Positions 1,310 to 55,536 are shown, counted from the first letter of the stretch. The stretch: 64,000 nt of DNA from Minisyncoccota bacterium (GCA_041663145.1 JBAZRG010000001.1:74467-138466), one strand, 5' to 3'. Program-made: numbers and translations. The notes: generated from the letters alone by a model not told the origin.

Positions 1310-1393
1310 GCGCAGGTGGCAGAGCGGTCAATTGCAATGGACTGTAAATCCATCGCCCTATGGGCTACGAAGGTTCAAATCCTTCCCTGCGCA
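1310..1393 (+). tRNA. tRNA-Tyr (GTA), type II with a long variable arm
   Basis: Hand-folded. Acceptor GCGCAGG/CCTGCGC. Anticodon stem ATGGA/TCCAT with loop CTGTAAA. Variable arm GCCC-TAT-GGGC. T-arm GAAGG-TTCAAAT-CCTTC. Confidence 0.8.
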
Positions 1394-1536
1394 CACGAAA
1401 AAACCGAGCTTTGCTCGGTTTTTGAGTGGGAGCAGAGCGACGCGACTGCTCGCGTCGCGAGGAAGGATTTGAAGAGTCTGAGCATGCGGCGCGAAGCGAA
1501 GCGAGCACAGCGCGAAGACTGTACCGAAGCTGTAAG

Positions 1537-1559
1537 CTTCAAATCCTTCCCTGCGCACT
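1537..1559 (+). repeat. Direct repeat duplicating the tRNA-Tyr 3' end (TTCAAATCCTTCCCTGCGCAC)
   Basis: A 21-22 bp identical copy of the tRNA-Tyr T-arm and acceptor 3' strand lies about 165 bp downstream of the gene. GC-rich hairpins lie between the two copies. Confidence 0.7.
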
Positions 1560-1699
1560 ACTTCGCAACTCGGCTAATCGCCGAGTTGCTTCGTAGTGGA
1601 GACCACACGAGAATATATTAGACAATCCATTTACATAAAAAAGACGCGGTTCTGATGTCCGCGTCGGTGTGTTTTTGTTGTCGTACAAAATCGTACGAA

Positions 1700-3786: not shown

Positions 3787-4971
3787 ATGAAAATTAGAAA
3801 TCTGTTAGCGATTATTTCAGTCATTGCAATGTCGGTCTCCGGCCCAGTTGGTTACTCTCAATCGGTGCCAAGTGGCGGCGATGATACCAATGGTGGGAAT
3901 GAGCAGACCGGAAATCAGACCGGCGGTTCCGATGACTCCAGTGGTGGCTCCAATGGTGGGAATGGTCAGGTGGAGTGCCCTCCGGGGTTCATCTGCACGG
4001 ACACGGTACCTTCTGCCGTGCCATTGGCCTCTCCAGCGACACTGAAAGCCTATGCGCTGACACTTGTCAAACCAATCTCCGTACAGGTGTACGGGATGAG
4101 CGTTTCCGGCGACAATTATCGGTCGGTAGAATATACATCCGCAGACGCCGACCCTGCCAAAATGGCAGCGTTGGCTAGATCTCAACAATTGTCTTTCAAG
4201 GCAGCGGTTGGAGATCAGTTGTGGTCATATGTGAGTTACGACAGTCGGCCGATTCCTCTTATGGAGTCTAACGGCCAGTTGGTGAATTACACCTTCAACC
4301 TGTTCTCCGGTTCGAAAGCGTTCAAGCTCGAACCACAAAAGGGTGGTTGGGGCATTCCAGAGACCGCCTATAAGGTGGAACTCGACATGTCCTACGTCCC
4401 ATTCGTGGTGCCGGGCATGCAAGATGCTGTCATCGTAACGACCGATGAAAACGGGAATCAGACCGGTTGGTATAGTTTCCGCGAATCTTACGGAAACTAT
4501 GTTGACAGGGGTGTTCTCCTTTTAACCGAGGAGATGACTGGTCACAGAGGCCAGCTCATCATCACCATGAAGAATGGTGAGAAAATATCTTATAACCTCA
4601 AGAACGAACAACGGCAAGAGTCTGTCTCATTGCAGTTTACCGAAGTTCAGGCCACGATCAAGGGAGTGCGGTCGGTGCCGGCCACGGAAAATATTATGTA
4701 TGTGGCCGGTGATGAGATCATCCGCACTTCCGCAAAGGAAGATATGTGGTCATCGATCACGTTTCCTCCCGGACTCGATCGATACCCAGTCAAAGTCGCC
4801 GTCATTGAGACGGAGACACTGGGTCTCAACTGGAGCGCAGAATGGCTGGAGTTTAACCCTTATGTGGAGCCGGTCCGGTTCCTGATAAAGGCGAGTCAAC
4901 CTATTCTCATTCGCTTCGAGTATGAGACAGATCCAGAGCCACTGAACGGTGGCGGTATCGGAAAAAGCTAG
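3787..4971 (+). CDS. Secreted hypothetical protein with signal peptide and a Gly/Asn/Ser-rich low-complexity linker
   Basis: N-terminal 'MKIRNLLAIISVIAMSVSG' is signal-peptide-like, followed by a GGDDTNGGNEQTGNQTGGSDDSSGG linker. Confidence 0.5.
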   Translation: MKIRNLLAIISVIAMSVSGPVGYSQSVPSGGDDTNGGNEQTGNQTGGSDDSSGGSNGGNGQVECPPGFICTDTVPSAVPLASPATLKAYALTLVKPISVQVYGMSVSGDNYRSVEYTSADADPAKMAALARSQQLSFKAAVGDQLWSYVSYDSRPIPLMESNGQLVNYTFNLFSGSKAFKLEPQKGGWGIPETAYKVELDMSYVPFVVPGMQDAVIVTTDENGNQTGWYSFRESYGNYVDRGVLLLTEEMTGHRGQLIITMKNGEKISYNLKNEQRQESVSLQFTEVQATIKGVRSVPATENIMYVAGDEIIRTSAKEDMWSSITFPPGLDRYPVKVAVIETETLGLNWSAEWLEFNPYVEPVRFLIKASQPILIRFEYETDPEPLNGGGIGKS

Positions 4972-11217: not shown

Positions 11218-11404
11218 TTAGAGAGTCTTTCTTGGTTTGCTAATCAGGTGAGCTGAGTTGTCAATCTGTGTGTATATTGACACATCCTATCAAAGCCGTC
11301 AATCTTTTGATTGACAAATATTCTGTGCTTGCACTGCGTAGCTCGCGATTAGCGAGCGAAGTAGTCCTCCTTCGCTCGTAGGACACGAGCTTCGGAGGGA
11401 CAAG

Positions 11405-11486
11405 TGCCGGGAGGGAGAATCGAACTCCCATGGATTACTCCGCACGATTTTGAGTCGTGTGCGTCTACCAATTCCGCCATCCCGGC
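11405..11486 (-). tRNA. tRNA-Leu (CAA), type II
   Basis: Minus-strand reading GCCGGGA...TCCCGGC-A. Anticodon loop CTCAAAA, long variable arm, T-loop TTCGATT. Confidence 0.8.
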
Positions 11487-21643: not shown

Positions 21644-22684
21644 GTGGACATGGCAGTATTATATAGAACACACCGTCCTTCAGTCTGGAATGAAGTCGTC
21701 GGACAAGATCAGGTTACAGACTCGCTTAGAGATGCCGTAGACAGTGGACGTGTGGCACATGCCTATCTGTTTTCCGGATCACGTGGTACTGGCAAAACAT
21801 CGGTGGCTCGCATATTGGCTGGTGCTCTCTTAACATCTGGTGAAGATGTCTATGAGATCGACGCGGCCTCGAATCGTGGTATAGATGATATACGCGAACT
21901 CAGGGAACATGTTTCGATCTTACCTTTTAGCTCCAAATACAAAGTCTACATCATAGACGAAGTCCACATGCTCTCAAAAGAAGCTTGGAATGCGCTTCTG
22001 AAAACTCTGGAAGAACCGCCGGTACATGTTATCTTTATCCTTGCTACGACTGATTTGGACAAAGTTCCTGATACTATCATCTCCCGTTGTCAGACTTTTG
22101 TCTTTCGTAAGCCATCGAGAGAGATCTTGCGCAAGGAAGTGACGAGAATAGCAAAAAAGGAAGGTTATGATCTGGATCTCGGTGCCGCGGATCTCATAGC
22201 ACTACTTGGTGACGGCTCATTTCGAGATGCGCTCGGAATGTTGGAAAAAGTGATCTCTGCATCAGGGGACCAAAGTTCAAAGACAAGCAAGCAGATCAGT
22301 CGTGAAAAAGTCGAATCTATCACAGGTGCGCCTAGAGCAGAGCTGGTGAACTCTTTTATCGAAGGACTTATGGCAAAGAAGAGCGACGATACCCTTGGTG
22401 TTATATGCGAAGCGGAAAAAGCTGGTATCTCGATGAATATTTTTGTGACTCTGATATTGGAAAAATTACGTTTCATCCTGATCATGACACATTCAAAGTC
22501 ATCTGAGGTGAATATTAAAGATCGCCTCTCGCCGGATGATCTAGAATTCGTAAAAAAGCAGGCAGAAACCAAACTTCTGACTCCATCCATGCTCTACGCC
22601 ATGCTCGAAGCGGCTGAAGGCGTTTCTCGAGCAAAAATCGAGCAATTGCCCCTAGAGTTGGCTGTCGTGAAGATTTGTGGTTAA
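21644..22684 (+). CDS. dnaX: DNA polymerase III subunit gamma (short form, no tau extension)
   Basis: 'YRTHRPSVWNEVVGQD', Walker A 'GSRGTGKTS', 'DEVHML', and sensor 'SRCQ'. Confidence 0.8.
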   Translation: MDMAVLYRTHRPSVWNEVVGQDQVTDSLRDAVDSGRVAHAYLFSGSRGTGKTSVARILAGALLTSGEDVYEIDAASNRGIDDIRELREHVSILPFSSKYKVYIIDEVHMLSKEAWNALLKTLEEPPVHVIFILATTDLDKVPDTIISRCQTFVFRKPSREILRKEVTRIAKKEGYDLDLGAADLIALLGDGSFRDALGMLEKVISASGDQSSKTSKQISREKVESITGAPRAELVNSFIEGLMAKKSDDTLGVICEAEKAGISMNIFVTLILEKLRFILIMTHSKSSEVNIKDRLSPDDLEFVKKQAETKLLTPSMLYAMLEAAEGVSRAKIEQLPLELAVVKICG

Positions 22685-22865
22685 ATTGTGAAGATGCGAT
22701 AGTGTGTAGTAACATTTACAATCTTGCGGGCTCCTCCTTCGCTCTTGCAGAGCTACGGAGGACACAGTCGTCTAATGGGTGGGTCGCCTACGCTTGCTGT
22801 CGCAAGCTTCGGCGGACCGAAGTCGTCTTGGTGATCGTTATACTGTGTAGTTACATTTACAACTT

Positions 22866-22936
22866 TGCGGGCTCGTCTAATGGTAGGACTCCTCCCTTTG
22901 AAGGAGGCTATTGGGGTTCGAATCCCTGGCCCGCAG
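22866..22936 (+). tRNA. tRNA-Gln (TTG)
   Basis: Acceptor TGCGGGC/GCCCGCA. Anticodon stem CCTCC/GGAGG with loop CTTTGAA. T-loop TTCGAAT. Confidence 0.75.
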
Positions 22937-23081
22937 CAAATAAATTACATAAAACAATAATATGAAAAATAAAACTCAAGTATTCATGATTCACGGAGGA
23001 ATGACTTTCAAAAACAAGAGAGATTATTTACATTTAGAATCAATAAATTAAATAATATGGCAACAATATCATATAATATCT

Positions 23082-23597
23082 ATGAGTAAAAAATATATAT
23101 GTGACGGAACAAAATATGAGATTGGTGGCCCGAAGGCTGATACAATAGGTTTACCAGTTTCTATTATGGGTCAACCTTTAAAGATAAGTGTAGAAGGCTA
23201 TGAATTACAGTTAAAATCATCATTCCACATTAGTCTCGTTTGTATCGGTAAGATGATTGAGAAGCATAAGATATCTATTCCTGATTTTGTAAATAAAGTC
23301 ATTGAAGACTTCTGTAGCTATGTTAGTACTACGGAAATAAATTTTTTGAAATATCGTAATGAATTTAGATTCGTCTCACAAAATGAAAGGCGAACCATTG
23401 TTGCAATGTGTGATATTTCTAATCTAAAAGAGTTTTTTGACTTGATTAACAAAAAGTATTCCTTGAAAGTTGAATATCAACCTACACATGTAACTATCTA
23501 TACCTTGCAACCAGAATTAGGCATCTTTCTATCTGACAGTAATGATTTACGGGAGCTTACAAAGGTAATTCCTAAGCCTGAAGGTGTGAATATATAG
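23082..23597 (+). CDS. Possible 2H-phosphoesterase (LigT-like) family protein
   Basis: Two H-x-S/T-x motifs ('FHISLV' and 'THVTIY') spaced about 90 aa apart. A 29-codon ORF upstream (about 22985-23075, 'MKNKTQVFMIHGGMTF...') looks like a gene fragment. Confidence 0.35.
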   Translation: MSKKYICDGTKYEIGGPKADTIGLPVSIMGQPLKISVEGYELQLKSSFHISLVCIGKMIEKHKISIPDFVNKVIEDFCSYVSTTEINFLKYRNEFRFVSQNERRTIVAMCDISNLKEFFDLINKKYSLKVEYQPTHVTIYTLQPELGIFLSDSNDLRELTKVIPKPEGVNI

Positions 23598-23675
23598 TTG
23601 TTCCAGCAGCGTCCCATCCGGCCAGCAAAATGATCTGTACCTCATAAAGCAGAATTTTTTGGGCACTAGTGAGCT

Positions 23676-27309: not shown

Positions 27310-28050
27310 ATGGCTTAACAAAGCCAGATTTAGCATATCCTATTGGACAAAGTGTCAAAATGCTTGACAAATGCTGTGGGTATGCTATACTTGTCGTGTC
27401 AGGATAAGGTATTGGATACAATCTTGATGTGCTTAGTAGGCACTTTCTTCAGTACATTGTAAGTCAAGTCAGTTTCGAGGGCGCGAAGCATTTCTTCTTC
27501 GCCCTCGTCTTTGCGGTTTGGCGCTTCGGGGGTTCGTCCCACGTGCTACCGGCCGCATGTAAAAGGGCAGTTCTGGCTATAGCCTCTCTATCAGAAAGAG
27601 CCAGATAAGTGAAATTGGGTTGCAGGTATTTGTGAGAAACAAATACCACGCATGCGTTTCACTTAAGGAGATTCATTTCTCTTACCTCCATGCTTTGGCA
27701 CAAAAAGTGGAGGCGGACAACAGTTAGAATGTGTCTTGCTCGATACCCCTGAAAGAGAAAATCTGAAAGCAATATTTCAGGAAGGGGATTGAGGACAGAA
27801 TCATCTCGCGAGGATTCTATGTGGGGGTAGTAAGTGGCAAGTCGCCCACCTTCATGACCCGTCAAGCTTTCATGCGAACAAGGTTTGCCGCATGAGCCAC
27901 CCAGCATCATCTGGTGTTGGTTACAAAAGAATTTCCGAGTGGAAGTTCTGCAAACCATTAGTTACCTGCCCCTGAGCTGCGCCACATTTTGGCGATGGCT
28001 CGGGGGTTTTCTTTTTATACTAATCATAGTGGTGGAATGAAAGCTGTACA
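27310..28050. other. About 740 bp non-coding, GC-enriched, hairpin-rich region (candidate structured RNA or decayed foreign DNA)
   Basis: No ORF longer than 99 aa in any frame. GC is roughly 50% against about 38% in flanking genes. There are strong hairpins, for example CGAGGGCGCGAAG...CTTCGCCCTCG at 27477-27510, and a GGGGGTTTTCTTTTT terminator-like run at 28003-28017. Confidence 0.4.
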
Positions 28051-28055
28051 AAAAA

Positions 28056-28355
28056 GTGTTAAATTTAGTGTTACATAGGAACGAGATAATACGCCCAATG
28101 ATATATTACACTTACATTCTCAGATGTGCCGATGATTCTCTGTATGTTGGGTGTACGAACGATCTTGAAAAACGTCTTTTTCAACATAACAATTCTAAGC
28201 GAGGCGCGCACTACACGAAGATCAGAAGACCTGTAATATTGGTATACCACGAGAAATTCGTCACTCTGAGGAAAGCTCGAGGAAGGGAAGCAGAGCTCAA
28301 AAGTTGGAGAAGAGAACAAAAATTGGCGTTGGTGGGTACTAAGAAAAAGGCATAA
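28056..28355 (+). CDS. GIY-YIG nuclease superfamily protein (YhbQ/UPF0213-like, about 90-100 aa)
   Basis: 'YYTYILRCADDSLYVGCTNDLEKRLFQHN...GAHYT' GIY-YIG core. The start is probably the Met at about 28098. Confidence 0.65.
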   Translation: MLNLVLHRNEIIRPMIYYTYILRCADDSLYVGCTNDLEKRLFQHNNSKRGAHYTKIRRPVILVYHEKFVTLRKARGREAELKSWRREQKLALVGTKKKA

Positions 28356-28446
28356 CGAAATTGCTTTTTATTCATTAATTTGCTATTGTATGGACACAAG
28401 TGGCTTCGGCCTCACCTCCGAAAGGAGGAGAACAGGTGGAAAAATG

Positions 28447-29082
28447 TCAGAATAAATTTCTGGCATTTTTTCTTAATTCCTCAAATTTTTCTTTATCAAG
28501 AAAGCCTATTTTTTCGACATGACGTCGAGTATCGATTGATCGTATTTGAGAAAGAAGAGCTGACGCATGCTTTGTGTCGACTAGTCCAACAGGTATACGT
28601 AGATGATGTTTGTTGGGAGATGATGTTAGGGGGATAACCATGCATATTCTTGGTCCAAATTCTCGAATGATTACACATGGACGTAGAAATTCTTCACCAC
28701 TTCCGTCTTGTTCAAAACCAATATTGACTCCTAATCTACACCACCATATCTCTCTTGTTGTATATAGACGCTTCTCTTCAAGTTCTGCTTTTTTCTTTTT
28801 TGAATTCCATTTATCAAAATCTTTAGAATCAAGGTCTTTGTCAATCAAAGAAAATCTTATCCCATATTCTACTTCATATTCCAGATCTTTAATATGATTT
28901 TCAGCTTTATCTATTGCCAATCTTATAAAGTTAAAATCGCCGAGATGTTGTATATCCAAATCACTTTCATAATCTTTCTCAGAAACCCTAAATTTATCTA
29001 AGGAAATTTCTTCGATTTTTATATAATTGTTTGCACTCATAATAATTTGGGATAATTTTATTCTTAATTTTAGAAATAGCAA
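28447..29082 (-). CDS. MazF/PemK-family toxin fused to an acidic N-terminal extension of about 100 aa
   Basis: C-terminal 'REIWWCRLGVNIGFEQDGSGEEFLRPCVIIREFG...ICMVIPLTSS...HLRIPVG' matches the MazF/Kid pattern. The N-terminal 100 aa are D/E-rich. No separate antitoxin ORF is adjacent. Confidence 0.65.
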   Translation of the reverse strand: MLFLKLRIKLSQIIMSANNYIKIEEISLDKFRVSEKDYESDLDIQHLGDFNFIRLAIDKAENHIKDLEYEVEYGIRFSLIDKDLDSKDFDKWNSKKKKAELEEKRLYTTREIWWCRLGVNIGFEQDGSGEEFLRPCVIIREFGPRICMVIPLTSSPNKHHLRIPVGLVDTKHASALLSQIRSIDTRRHVEKIGFLDKEKFEELRKNARNLF

Positions 29083-39878: not shown

Positions 39879-40162
39879 TTGCGGTTGCTCGTCTTACCGT
39901 CCAGTCATCATAGTCGAAGTCTCTGGAAGACTTTGGGTGCACGCATCTCTTCATGAGCGCATGCACTAACGAGTCGAAACGAACAGTTTCAACCCAACGT
40001 CCCAATTAGGGAAATGTTTACTATACTCTTAGAGTGTAGCTTTACAGGAACTATTAAAAGTGCCCATAAAGCTACACAAGAAAAGTTGTGTGTATACTTG
40101 TTATAATATGTCAAAAAACTATATGCTAACATCATAGCATATTCGATATATAATGTCAAGTG

Positions 40163-40235
40163 CTCCGCGGGTAGGATTCGAACCTACGACCAATCCCTTA
40201 ACAGGGGACCGCTCTACCAACTGAGCTACCGCGGA
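40163..40235 (-). tRNA. tRNA-Asn (GTT)
   Basis: Minus-strand reading TCCGCGG...CCGCGGA-G. Anticodon loop CTGTTAA. T-arm GGTTCGAATCC. Confidence 0.8.
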
Positions 40236-40478
40236 ATGTTGTATCTATATGGTTTTAAATATTTCGTGATGTGTCTACTTGTCCTTCGTAGCTCCGAGTT
40301 TTACGAGGAGCGAAGGAGGACCAAGACAGCTACCGCGGAATATGTTTTACACTGGAACGATCTTCACTATCAAATGTCAAGCTATGTTTCTCGCGCTCGA
40401 CATGAGAGAATGTACCATATAGTCATGACGAAATCAAAATCATCGAACTGGATTAGTGTCATAATAGAAGACTAGGAT

Positions 40479-42814: not shown

Positions 42815-43070
42815 ATTACATCTGCAACCTCTCACACATCATTACATATGTATAGACCCCAACATAATGTTCCCGCCACAATCCTGCGTAATCGCTTCTC
42901 AAATTACAACCGTGTTTGGTTCCAAGGCTTCACCAAACACGGGTAATTTTTCGAAGCTCAATCGCATACTCGGATTGTTTCGGGAACATTATGTTGGGGG
43001 TCATGACATAAGCATAAGTTCGCAAAATGTTCTCGGAAGACAAAAATGATGTGTGAGGGGTTGCAGATGG
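42815..43070. repeat. Composite palindromic MITE-like element, copy 1 (inner TIR element 42855-43004 nested in an outer 27-bp inverted repeat)
   Basis: Inner TIRs GACCCCAACATAATGTTCCCG / CGGGAACATTATGTTGGGGGTC. Outer IR ACATCTGCAACCTCTCACACATCATT / AATGATGTGTGAGGGGTTGCAGATG. An internal hairpin CCGTGTTTGGT...ACCAAACACGG is also present. A second copy lies at 55355-55536. Confidence 0.8.
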
Positions 43071-55354: not shown

Positions 55355-55536
55355 CACGTGACCCCCAACATAATGTTCCCGCCACAATCCTGCCCAGTAG
55401 GCGATCGTGCTCGATCGCGTAATCGCTTCTCAAATTACAACCGTGTTTGGTTCCAAGGCTTCACCAAACACGGGTAATTTATCGAAGCTCAATCGCATAC
55501 TCGGATTGTTCTGGGAACATTATGTTGGGGGTCACG
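55355..55536. repeat. MITE-like element, copy 2 (26-bp perfect TIR CACGTGACCCCCAACATAATGTTCCC)
   Basis: Same core as 42855-43004, about 90% identical, with a roughly 30-bp internal insertion (CCAGTAGGCGATCGTGCTCGATCGC). Confidence 0.85.

Follow-up and report, generated by a model that had tools for sequence, protein, structure and literature searches.

Introduction

The tiny genomes of CPR bacteria carry their tRNA genes in single copy, and mobile DNA that targets such genes must therefore spare their function. In tyrosine-integrase integration at tRNA genes (attL/attR), the 3' part of the tRNA is duplicated, and the inserted DNA carries the integrase and is kilobases long. REP/REPIN sequences are repetitive extragenic palindromes mobilised by RAYT Y1 transposases; the RAYT gene (PF01797) is usually flanked by REPs, and a conserved GTAG/GTGG head lies next to the REP palindrome. 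Rickettsia palindromic elements (RPE) measure about 100-150 bp and are restricted to Rickettsia. Homing endonuclease genes offer a further comparison. SegB of phage T4 is encoded by a free-standing GIY-YIG homing endonuclease gene within a tRNA gene cluster (PMC2330249; PMC13096335), and in fungal mitochondria homing endonuclease genes separate a gene from a partial copy of its own end (PMC6279837).

Here, we analysed a stretch of 64,000 nucleotides from Minisyncoccota bacterium (GCA_041663145.1 JBAZRG010000001.1:74467-138466), hereafter the window, in which a tRNA-Gln gene is preceded by a partial copy of itself broken up by GC-rich hairpins. This feature is real and non-random; what it represents is no new gene but a scar of the pseudogene type. 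On our best reading, the locus records repeated attack by mobile DNA on a tRNA gene that was rescued by a promoter-bearing duplication, the cause of which we infer below. Together with its relatives, the locus shows one way out for a host whose tRNA genes are under attack: promoter and 5' end are duplicated, and the decaying stub then gathers palindromic insertions. The recurrent pattern is one in which mobile DNA targets the tRNA genes of CPR bacteria; we found no description of it, of the hairpin element or of tRNA stubs in CPR when the literature was searched by concept and by hairpin sequence. The comparison also yields a hairpin family with clear covariation that is absent from Rfam, a strong and unexplained linkage of a conserved 85-aa GIY-YIG nuclease with tRNA-Gln, and a clade with the stop codon of dnaX placed within the D-loop of tRNA-Gln. 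Annotation faces a practical risk, as stubs and hairpins of this kind could pass for new small RNAs, for introns or for errors of assembly.

Results and Discussion

A direct repeat lies between dnaX and tRNA-Gln

The window encodes a dnaX product for which a 100% identical Paceibacterota protein exists, named DNA polymerase III subunit gamma/tau (exact-protein look-up of the GTG-start version returned no match, the ATG-start protein being reached through a homologue search). The host is an uncultivated Candidatus Paceibacterota (CPR/Parcubacteria) bacterium. The ORFs flanking the tRNA-Gln locus are dnaX, an ORF without a Pfam match and one for a beta-lactamase-fold protein. The features of the locus are as follows, hairpin scores being those of a covariance model (R1) described below:

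21644-22684, plus strand: dnaX (DNA polymerase III gamma/tau), by translation, ending ...GTG AAG ATT TGT GGT TAA (VKICG*)
22699-22724, plus strand: leader copy A, beginning at the -10-like hexamer GATAGT
22725-22733, plus strand: tRNA-Gln stub nt 1-9 (TGCGGGCTC), identical to 22866-22874
22731-22768, plus strand: hairpin unit 1 (core 22734-22761, tail ACACAG); 48.4 bits, E = 2.4e-10; a training member of R1
22768-22778, plus strand: tRNA-Gln stub nt 8-18 (TCGTCTAATGG, D-arm), an exact 11-mer repeat of 22873-22883
22782-22822, plus strand: hairpin unit 2 (GGTCGCC-TACG-CTTGC-TGTC-GCAAG-CTTCG-GCGGACC-GAAG); 21.6 bits, E = 0.0021; outside the R1 training set
22840-22865, plus strand: leader copy B, the repeat of copy A, beginning at the -10-like hexamer TATACT
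22866-22937, plus strand: intact tRNA-Gln(UUG), found by ARAGORN and by Rfam (RF00005, 54.7 bits)
28098-28355, plus strand: gene for an 85-aa GIY-YIG nuclease (Pfam PF01541, E = 3.3e-16)

A first-pass annotation had proposed that a 33-bp block at 22701-22733 is about 90% identical to the leader and first 9 nt of tRNA-Gln, and the repeat was indeed found there, at 87-89% identity over 35-38 nt. A repeat search paired 22699-22736 with 22840-22877 (38 nt, 87% identity, spacing 141), and an ungapped scan returned 35 nt with 4 mismatches (22699-22733 vs 22840-22874). A 31-nt degenerate pattern spanning both copies had only these two sites in 64 kb and no matches in 100 shuffles. The repeat runs from the -10-like hexamer through the leader to tRNA-Gln nt 1-9; both hexamers were read from the sequence alone, and a sigma-70 promoter and terminator scan returned nothing in leader A or leader B.

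The 108-bp spacer is a mosaic, comprising unit 1, tRNA nt 8-18, unit 2, about 17 nt and then leader copy B. Unit 1, whose hairpin CTCC-TTC-GCTC-TTGCA-GAGC-TAC-GGAG had been noted earlier as opening the spacer, was located at 22734-22760 and is present in the predicted fold. It sits between tRNA nt 9 and nt 8, with TC (tRNA nt 8-9) duplicated at its flanks. Unit 2 differs from unit 1 in both stems but retains the UWCG...CUWCG loop letters. Of the D-arm-like sequence previously ascribed to the spacer, TCGTCTAATGG is an exact copy of tRNA nt 8-18, whereas GGGTCGCC is the 5' arm of hairpin unit 2. Two long patterns covering the insert were each unique in the window, in which only the hairpin modules repeat. 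The spacer is therefore not a single 108-bp element that regenerated the tRNA 5' end, as the first-pass annotation had suggested; its alternative, a fragmented earlier copy of tRNA-Gln, describes the upstream block correctly, with small elements inserted into that copy. Since the hairpin units make target duplications of only 0-2 bp and contain no tRNA sequence, they cannot themselves have regenerated the 5' end, and a separate duplication of roughly -26 to +20 must be assumed.

Directly 3' of tRNA-Gln lies a very AT-rich stretch (22950-23600, 18-33% GC) with a 171-aa ORF (23082-23597) that has no Pfam match. This stretch may be foreign DNA between tRNA-Gln and the GIY-YIG gene, which are neighbours in one relative (L177).

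Partial tRNA direct repeats around foreign DNA, with the tRNA gene regenerated, are the classic signature of integration, and could be explained by an integrase-type element or prophage that had its attachment site in tRNA-Gln and has since been nearly all deleted. A 3' fragment of tRNA-Tyr 140 nt downstream of its gene, and the low GC content and unmatched ORF of 22950-23600, would be in keeping with such an origin. We nevertheless consider it very improbable. The duplication took in the promoter and 5' end instead of the 3' end, the repeats are just 141 nt apart rather than kilobases, and Pfam searches of 30 window ORFs, including the neighbours of the four affected tRNAs, found no integrase, transposase or Y1 transposase (PF01797). 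Among about 90 loci, moreover, none held an integrase-bearing element bounded by the same 5' repeats.

The upstream copy is a dead stub at the ancestral position

Positions 22699-22839 hold the dead stub of a tRNA-Gln gene, in the place that the gene originally had just 3' of dnaX. ARAGORN and Rfam detected no tRNA or other RNA family in 22690-22865, and the upstream copy retains only nt 1-9 and 8-18, the 3' acceptor strand being absent. We gathered the dnaX loci of relatives from reference genomes, by exact-protein look-up and from metagenomes. The gene order dnaX to tRNA-Gln(UUG) was nearly universal (about 75 related loci), and the gap between the two genes was -15 to +36 nt in the clade whose dnaX ends in VKICG. 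Empty sites, which the first-pass annotation had recommended looking for, were found in at least 20 Paceibacterota loci with the tRNA 13-36 nt past the dnaX stop and no duplication, including members of the VKICG* clade (L085, L086, L089-L092, L102). Relatives gave no sign of a leader duplication conserved as promoter architecture. In the window, the stub begins 40 nt and the live tRNA-Gln 182 nt from the dnaX stop; given the short gap of the relatives, it is the stub that holds the ancestral position, and the working gene is a displaced copy. The stub is tolerated because the downstream tRNA-Gln gene does the work.

Other identities were considered for the upstream block. An SRP RNA, 6S RNA, tRNA-like RNA or riboswitch in the spacer (117 nt) was rejected, as Rfam was empty and the stretch folded no better than shuffled sequence (z = -0.61); an Rfam search of 22000-23600 at E <= 10 returned chance-level matches only for the stub and hairpins. 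An intron-bearing, split or permuted tRNA was ruled out by the lack of a 3' acceptor strand and by the duplication of the leader as well.

In four relatives, dnaX and tRNA-Gln overlap, such that the end codons TGC GGG ATC GTC TAA are tRNA nt 1-15 and the stop lies in the D-loop (L082, 3509-3523; L083, 3509-3523; L084, about 1822; L115, about 256). In these relatives, 5' cleavage by RNase P would strip the stop codon from the dnaX mRNA. At the dnaX end in the window, TGTGGTTAA may by its resemblance be a still older decayed stub. Several Paceibacterota have a conserved non-coding block of about 95 nt directly 5' of tRNA-Gln (CTTGTATA..CTTTTACGGGTTAATATAAG..CAAGTTCAGATTTGAATCG.AAGATTACAGGCTGGATCAAAGGTAT), located at about 1850-1950 in L088, 1865-1960 in L124, 2515-2605 in L120 and 2455-2565 in L129, and also present in L126, L122 and L160. 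It opens with a promoter-like pair (TTGTAT-17-TAATAT) and has no Rfam match.

The hairpins form a structured family found at tRNA genes

The motif CTCCTWCGCTC...GAGCTWCGGAG was found again in the window beside tRNA-Leu and tRNA-Asn, and in the relatives L113, L127 and L116. In an alignment of 24 units, whose arms were picked by sequence pattern so that arm conservation is partly by construction, standard pairs filled 88.7% of cells compared to 81.1% in shuffles, and 8 pairs had changed on both sides. Such pairing values were reached by none of 500 shuffles, and partners slid by 1-3 columns scored far lower. The pair just outside the search pattern covaries freely (CG 12, UA 8, GC 1). Family features are a fixed asymmetric internal loop (UWC on both strands) between two stems, and an RCAAG-like tail after the hairpin. 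Rfam had no match for the family, nor any beyond chance in a viral locus holding two units, and BLAST of the hairpin consensus against annotated phage and plasmid collections returned chance matches only.

The covariance model R1, run over the window with filters off, identified six units at E <= about 0.002 (one at tRNA-Tyr, two at tRNA-Leu, two at tRNA-Gln and one at tRNA-Asn), of which those starting at 1555 and 22782 were outside the training set. Each of the six touches a tRNA gene or a fragment of one. Apart from the tRNA-Gln locus, the features concerned are:

1310-1394, plus strand: intact tRNA-Tyr
1534-1558, plus strand: tRNA-Tyr 3' fragment (nt 61-85), 140 nt downstream of intact tRNA-Tyr
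1555-1604, plus strand: hairpin unit abutting the tRNA-Tyr fragment (R1 22.6 bits, E = 0.0012; outside the training set)
11326-11367, minus strand, and 11364-11405, plus strand: two hairpin units (R1) in opposite orientation, abutting the 3' end of tRNA-Leu(CAA)
11404-11486, minus strand: tRNA-Leu(CAA), with the two inverted units at its 3' end
40341-40321, minus strand: tRNA-Asn 5' stub (ATTCCGCGGTAGCT, then a decayed D-loop), in the same layout of stub, hairpin and intact gene as tRNA-Gln
40321-40276, minus strand: hairpin unit (R1 47.7 bits), about 45 nt upstream of intact tRNA-Asn
40162-40235, minus strand: intact tRNA-Asn, downstream of the stub and hairpin unit

It would be very unlikely for four independent loci all to fall by chance at tRNA genes and their flanks, which make up about 2% of the window. 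In the tRNA-Tyr region (1310-1604), the gene is succeeded by a terminator, about 110 nt of GC-rich spacer, a second copy of the gene's own 3' end and a hairpin unit, an arrangement that mirrors the Gln and Asn stubs on the 3' side. A leader module shared 5' of the Gln and Asn stubs (GTGAAGAT..CG..AGTGT) was considered and dismissed, as it rested on a weak similarity (p about 0.02) and an 8-mer with 13 occurrences in the window. The stretches compared, 22676-22724 and 40340-40392 (minus strand), have ATWGTGAAGAT.CG..AGTGT in common (p about 0.02 vs random windows). Two identical 33-nt hairpins (CCGTGTTTGGTTCCAAGGCTTCACCAAACACGG) at 42910-42942 and 55441-55473, 12.5 kb apart, are unrelated to the tRNA-associated family.

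The units resemble REP/REPIN sequences in being short (about 30-45 nt), GC-rich, imperfect palindromes, several per genome (six units in 64 kb), with the structure kept, as the covariation shows, and the stems variable. Inverted doublets occur in both (the tRNA-Leu site in the window, and L165, L166 and L170), and in both the hairpins could stabilise upstream mRNA. No RAYT gene was seen among the 30 ORFs scanned in the 64-kb window. On the complementary strand, GTAG occurs only in TAC-variant units, TTC variants being about equally common. The present family differs from REP/REPIN in having a fixed 5'-UWC/5'-UWC loop and an RCAAG tail common to unrelated, even high-GC genomes, in lying only at tRNA genes in the window, and in also occurring in-frame inside an ORF.

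This in-frame case shows that the hairpin element is mobile. In L081, whose dnaX is 75% identical to that of the window, units lie in-frame in the Dus gene as an insertion of about 60 aa, which is absent from three orthologues (L082, L083 and the window). The insertion is comparable to those of RPE; the present units, by contrast, are 30-50 nt long, belong to another phylum and are tied to tRNA D-arms. The motif was also found in 13 unrelated IMG/VR contigs (51-68% GC), where the units were near neither tRNAs nor GIY-YIG genes. At the insertion points 0-2 bp of target are duplicated: L127 and the window have TC, L087 and L156 no duplication. The tRNA-Gln stubs of L087 and L156 are broken by a second palindrome family (CCTGCCTG..CAGGCAGG), as is the dnaX ORF of L013, a reference Paceibacterota genome in which the palindrome lies within the dnaX coding region at 4864-4881.

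One feature counts against reading the locus as a scar: its order of stub, hairpin and D-arm is matched in detail by the distant L127, whose dnaX C-terminus is 45% identical and which has nt 1-9, hairpin, ACAG and TCGTCTAAT in succession. Selection for the arrangement could explain such a match, the stub and hairpins then forming a leader or insulator between dnaX and tRNA-Gln that serves as tandem promoters, as a stabiliser of the dnaX mRNA 3' end after RNase P, or as a small regulatory RNA. The covarying hairpin structure, the -10-like hexamer kept in each repeat copy, and the hairpins between the dnaX stop and the tRNA in L116, L092 and L087 would agree with this. We regard it as distinctly unlikely, however, because most relatives have nothing at the site, because stub extent, spacing and hairpin family vary by lineage as in a pseudogene, and because the 117-nt stretch showed neither a fold better than shuffled sequence nor an Rfam match. 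Moreover, units from unrelated high-GC contigs come at least as close to the window unit as the L127 unit does, so that there is no special orthology signal; the identical insertion point in the two genomes may reflect common descent or target preference. If the locus is a scar, any present function would be secondary at best, for example the shielding of the dnaX mRNA 3' end by a stable hairpin after RNase P excision of the tRNA.

tRNA-Gln stubs recur across Paceibacterota

A scan for partial tRNA copies, followed by inspection, found about eleven further Paceibacterota loci with 5' tRNA-Gln stubs:

L127: stub nt 1-9, the same hairpin at the same nt 9/8 site, nt 8-18; short spacer to the intact gene
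L113: stub nt 1-18, hairpin, decayed rest of the tRNA; a few nt to the intact gene
L087: stub nt 1-12, palindrome, nt 13-23; 12 nt to an "intact" gene with a poor acceptor stem, an example to be taken with caution
L001: stub nt 1-29, then nt 35-45; about 45 nt to the intact gene
L149: stub nt 1-23; about 120 nt to the intact gene
L182-184: stub nt 1 to about 26; 8 nt to the intact gene
L156: stub nt 1-10, palindrome, nt 11-27; GIY-YIG ORF before the intact gene
L145: stub nt 1-12, hairpin, nt 12-46; GIY-YIG ORF before the intact gene
L139-142: stub nt 1-16; then a GIY-YIG ORF and the full tRNA, with an inverted repeat on either side, and a 3' fragment (nt 18-72)

Most of the stubs break off on their 3' side within nt 16-29, and this clustering of end-points hints at a preferred break site. 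Two relatives, L113 (1700-2260) and L127 (1850-2420), have between dnaX and the tRNA-Gln stub a pair of toxin-antitoxin-like genes that share a promoter region, a reading from sequence inspection only.

A palindrome interrupts the D-arm of nearly every stub (Gln and Asn in the window, L127, L113, L087, L145 and L156), which raises the question of whether the hairpin itself triggers the duplication. A palindrome in the D-arm of the sole tRNA-Gln might stall or break replication, and template switching or unequal exchange would then leave a stub beside a restored gene, with no nuclease cassette involved. This would suit the tRNA fragments that abut a unit at three of the four unit-bearing tRNA loci of the window, and the several stubs that leave no room for an ORF (the window, L087, L113 and L127). 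Even so, we find it rather unlikely. The target duplication made by the units themselves is only 0-2 bp, units come without duplication at tRNA-Leu, in L116 and in the Dus gene of L081, and stubs without such a hairpin exist (L001, L149 and L182). An allele that is already interrupted, furthermore, cannot template an intact 5' end.

A GIY-YIG nuclease is linked to tRNA-Gln

GIY-YIG ORFs lie between stub and intact tRNA in L145, L156 and L139-142 (Pfam, E = 5e-15 to 8e-12), in the order native tRNA promoter and stub, ORF, and ORF end at or inside the intact tRNA. From this order, the nuclease gene would appear to be transcribed from the tRNA promoter, with the tRNA later excised from the transcript. 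Homologues of the GIY-YIG protein of the window, 70-80% identical to it, are widespread in Paceibacterota, and tRNA-Gln was found 100-270 nt upstream of the homologue in four of five contexts looked up. L177 has dnaX, tRNA-Gln and GIY-YIG in succession, L179-181 have tRNA-Gln(CUG) by the GIY-YIG gene, and L182-184 have tRNA-Gln with its stub by it, while the homologue of L185/186 has no neighbouring tRNA-Gln. Two more cases of GIY-YIG with tRNA-Gln are L006 and L155, the ORF of the latter being frameshifted. No significant hairpin units or tRNA fragments were found near the GIY-YIG homologues of L177-L181.

The cassettes of the relatives resemble homing genes in having a GIY-YIG ORF beside or inside tRNA genes, and in a host gene that stays functional through partial duplication, at the price of a dead fragment; the ORF between the duplicates has often degenerated or been lost. 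They differ in that the 5' end and promoter are duplicated here rather than the 3' end, and in that the relatives' proteins are predicted catalytic domains of 80-90 aa. The ORF that lies between the duplicated segments in L145, L156 and L139-142 has no counterpart at the tRNA-Gln locus of the window, where the 108-nt spacer contains no GIY-YIG ORF or recognisable remnant of one and about 17 nt are unaccounted for after hairpins and leader. The GIY-YIG protein encoded 5.2 kb from the stub, with no tRNA fragment beside its gene, is a candidate trans-acting partner, its putative tie to the stub being drawn from relatives.

We consider it most probable (roughly 0.55) that the stub was left by a duplication into which hairpins then landed, and that the duplication was driven by GIY-YIG homing-type cutting and repair. 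In a first step, some 50 nt spanning the -10 box to the D-arm (about -26 to +20) would have been duplicated locally, giving a tRNA-Gln gene downstream that was intact and had its own promoter, and leaving a truncated copy upstream. In a second step, two REP/RPE-like, mobile, GC-rich hairpin units would have entered the D-arm of the stub, where the anatomy shows them, one between nt 9 and nt 8 and the other after nt 18. The duplication would thus have come first and the hairpins later, into a dead copy. As insertions in a live tRNA gene would be lethal, units are visible only in stubs and flanks. The duplication itself belongs to a recurrent class of Paceibacterota tRNA-Gln rearrangements, whose fullest form is a cassette of tRNA promoter, 5' stub, GIY-YIG nuclease ORF and intact tRNA. 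Its likeliest driver would be homing-type cutting and repair of the tRNA gene; the GIY-YIG nuclease linked to tRNA-Gln would make the cut, and at the present locus the ORF would have been lost or never captured. Against this driver stand the spacer without an ORF remnant, the distance of 5.2 kb to the gene, and a nuclease that is predicted only and is a bare conserved domain. GIY-YIG proteins of 80-90 aa consist of the catalytic domain with no recognisable DNA-binding domain, and together with 70-80% identity across the phylum this would suit a conserved host gene better than a homing endonuclease with fast turnover.

A bolder conjecture, which we offer as improbable, is that the hairpins are an undescribed, cross-phyla family of structured palindromic mobile elements that became tRNA-homing in Paceibacterota, moved by or co-operating with the GIY-YIG nuclease at the side of tRNA-Gln. 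The tRNA stubs, including the one that uncoupled tRNA-Gln from its overlap with dnaX, would then be by-products of cutting and repair. If this were true, the family would amount to a REP/RAYT-like system built on a GIY-YIG nuclease.

Some minor observations concern the surroundings of the GIY-YIG genes. In the window, a GC-rich block with a terminator-like hairpin and no Rfam match lies upstream of the gene (27780-28030). Just downstream are a truncated hairpin resembling the outer stem of the family (28408-28430; R1 E = 1.4) and, on the opposite strand, an ORF with a MazF/PemK-type toxin domain (28447-29082). In L155, the frameshifted GIY-YIG ORF lies upstream of two extra tRNA-Gln-like copies situated 3' of tRNA-Gln (2186-2470), both with CCG in the anticodon loop and one of them called tRNA-Arg by ARAGORN.
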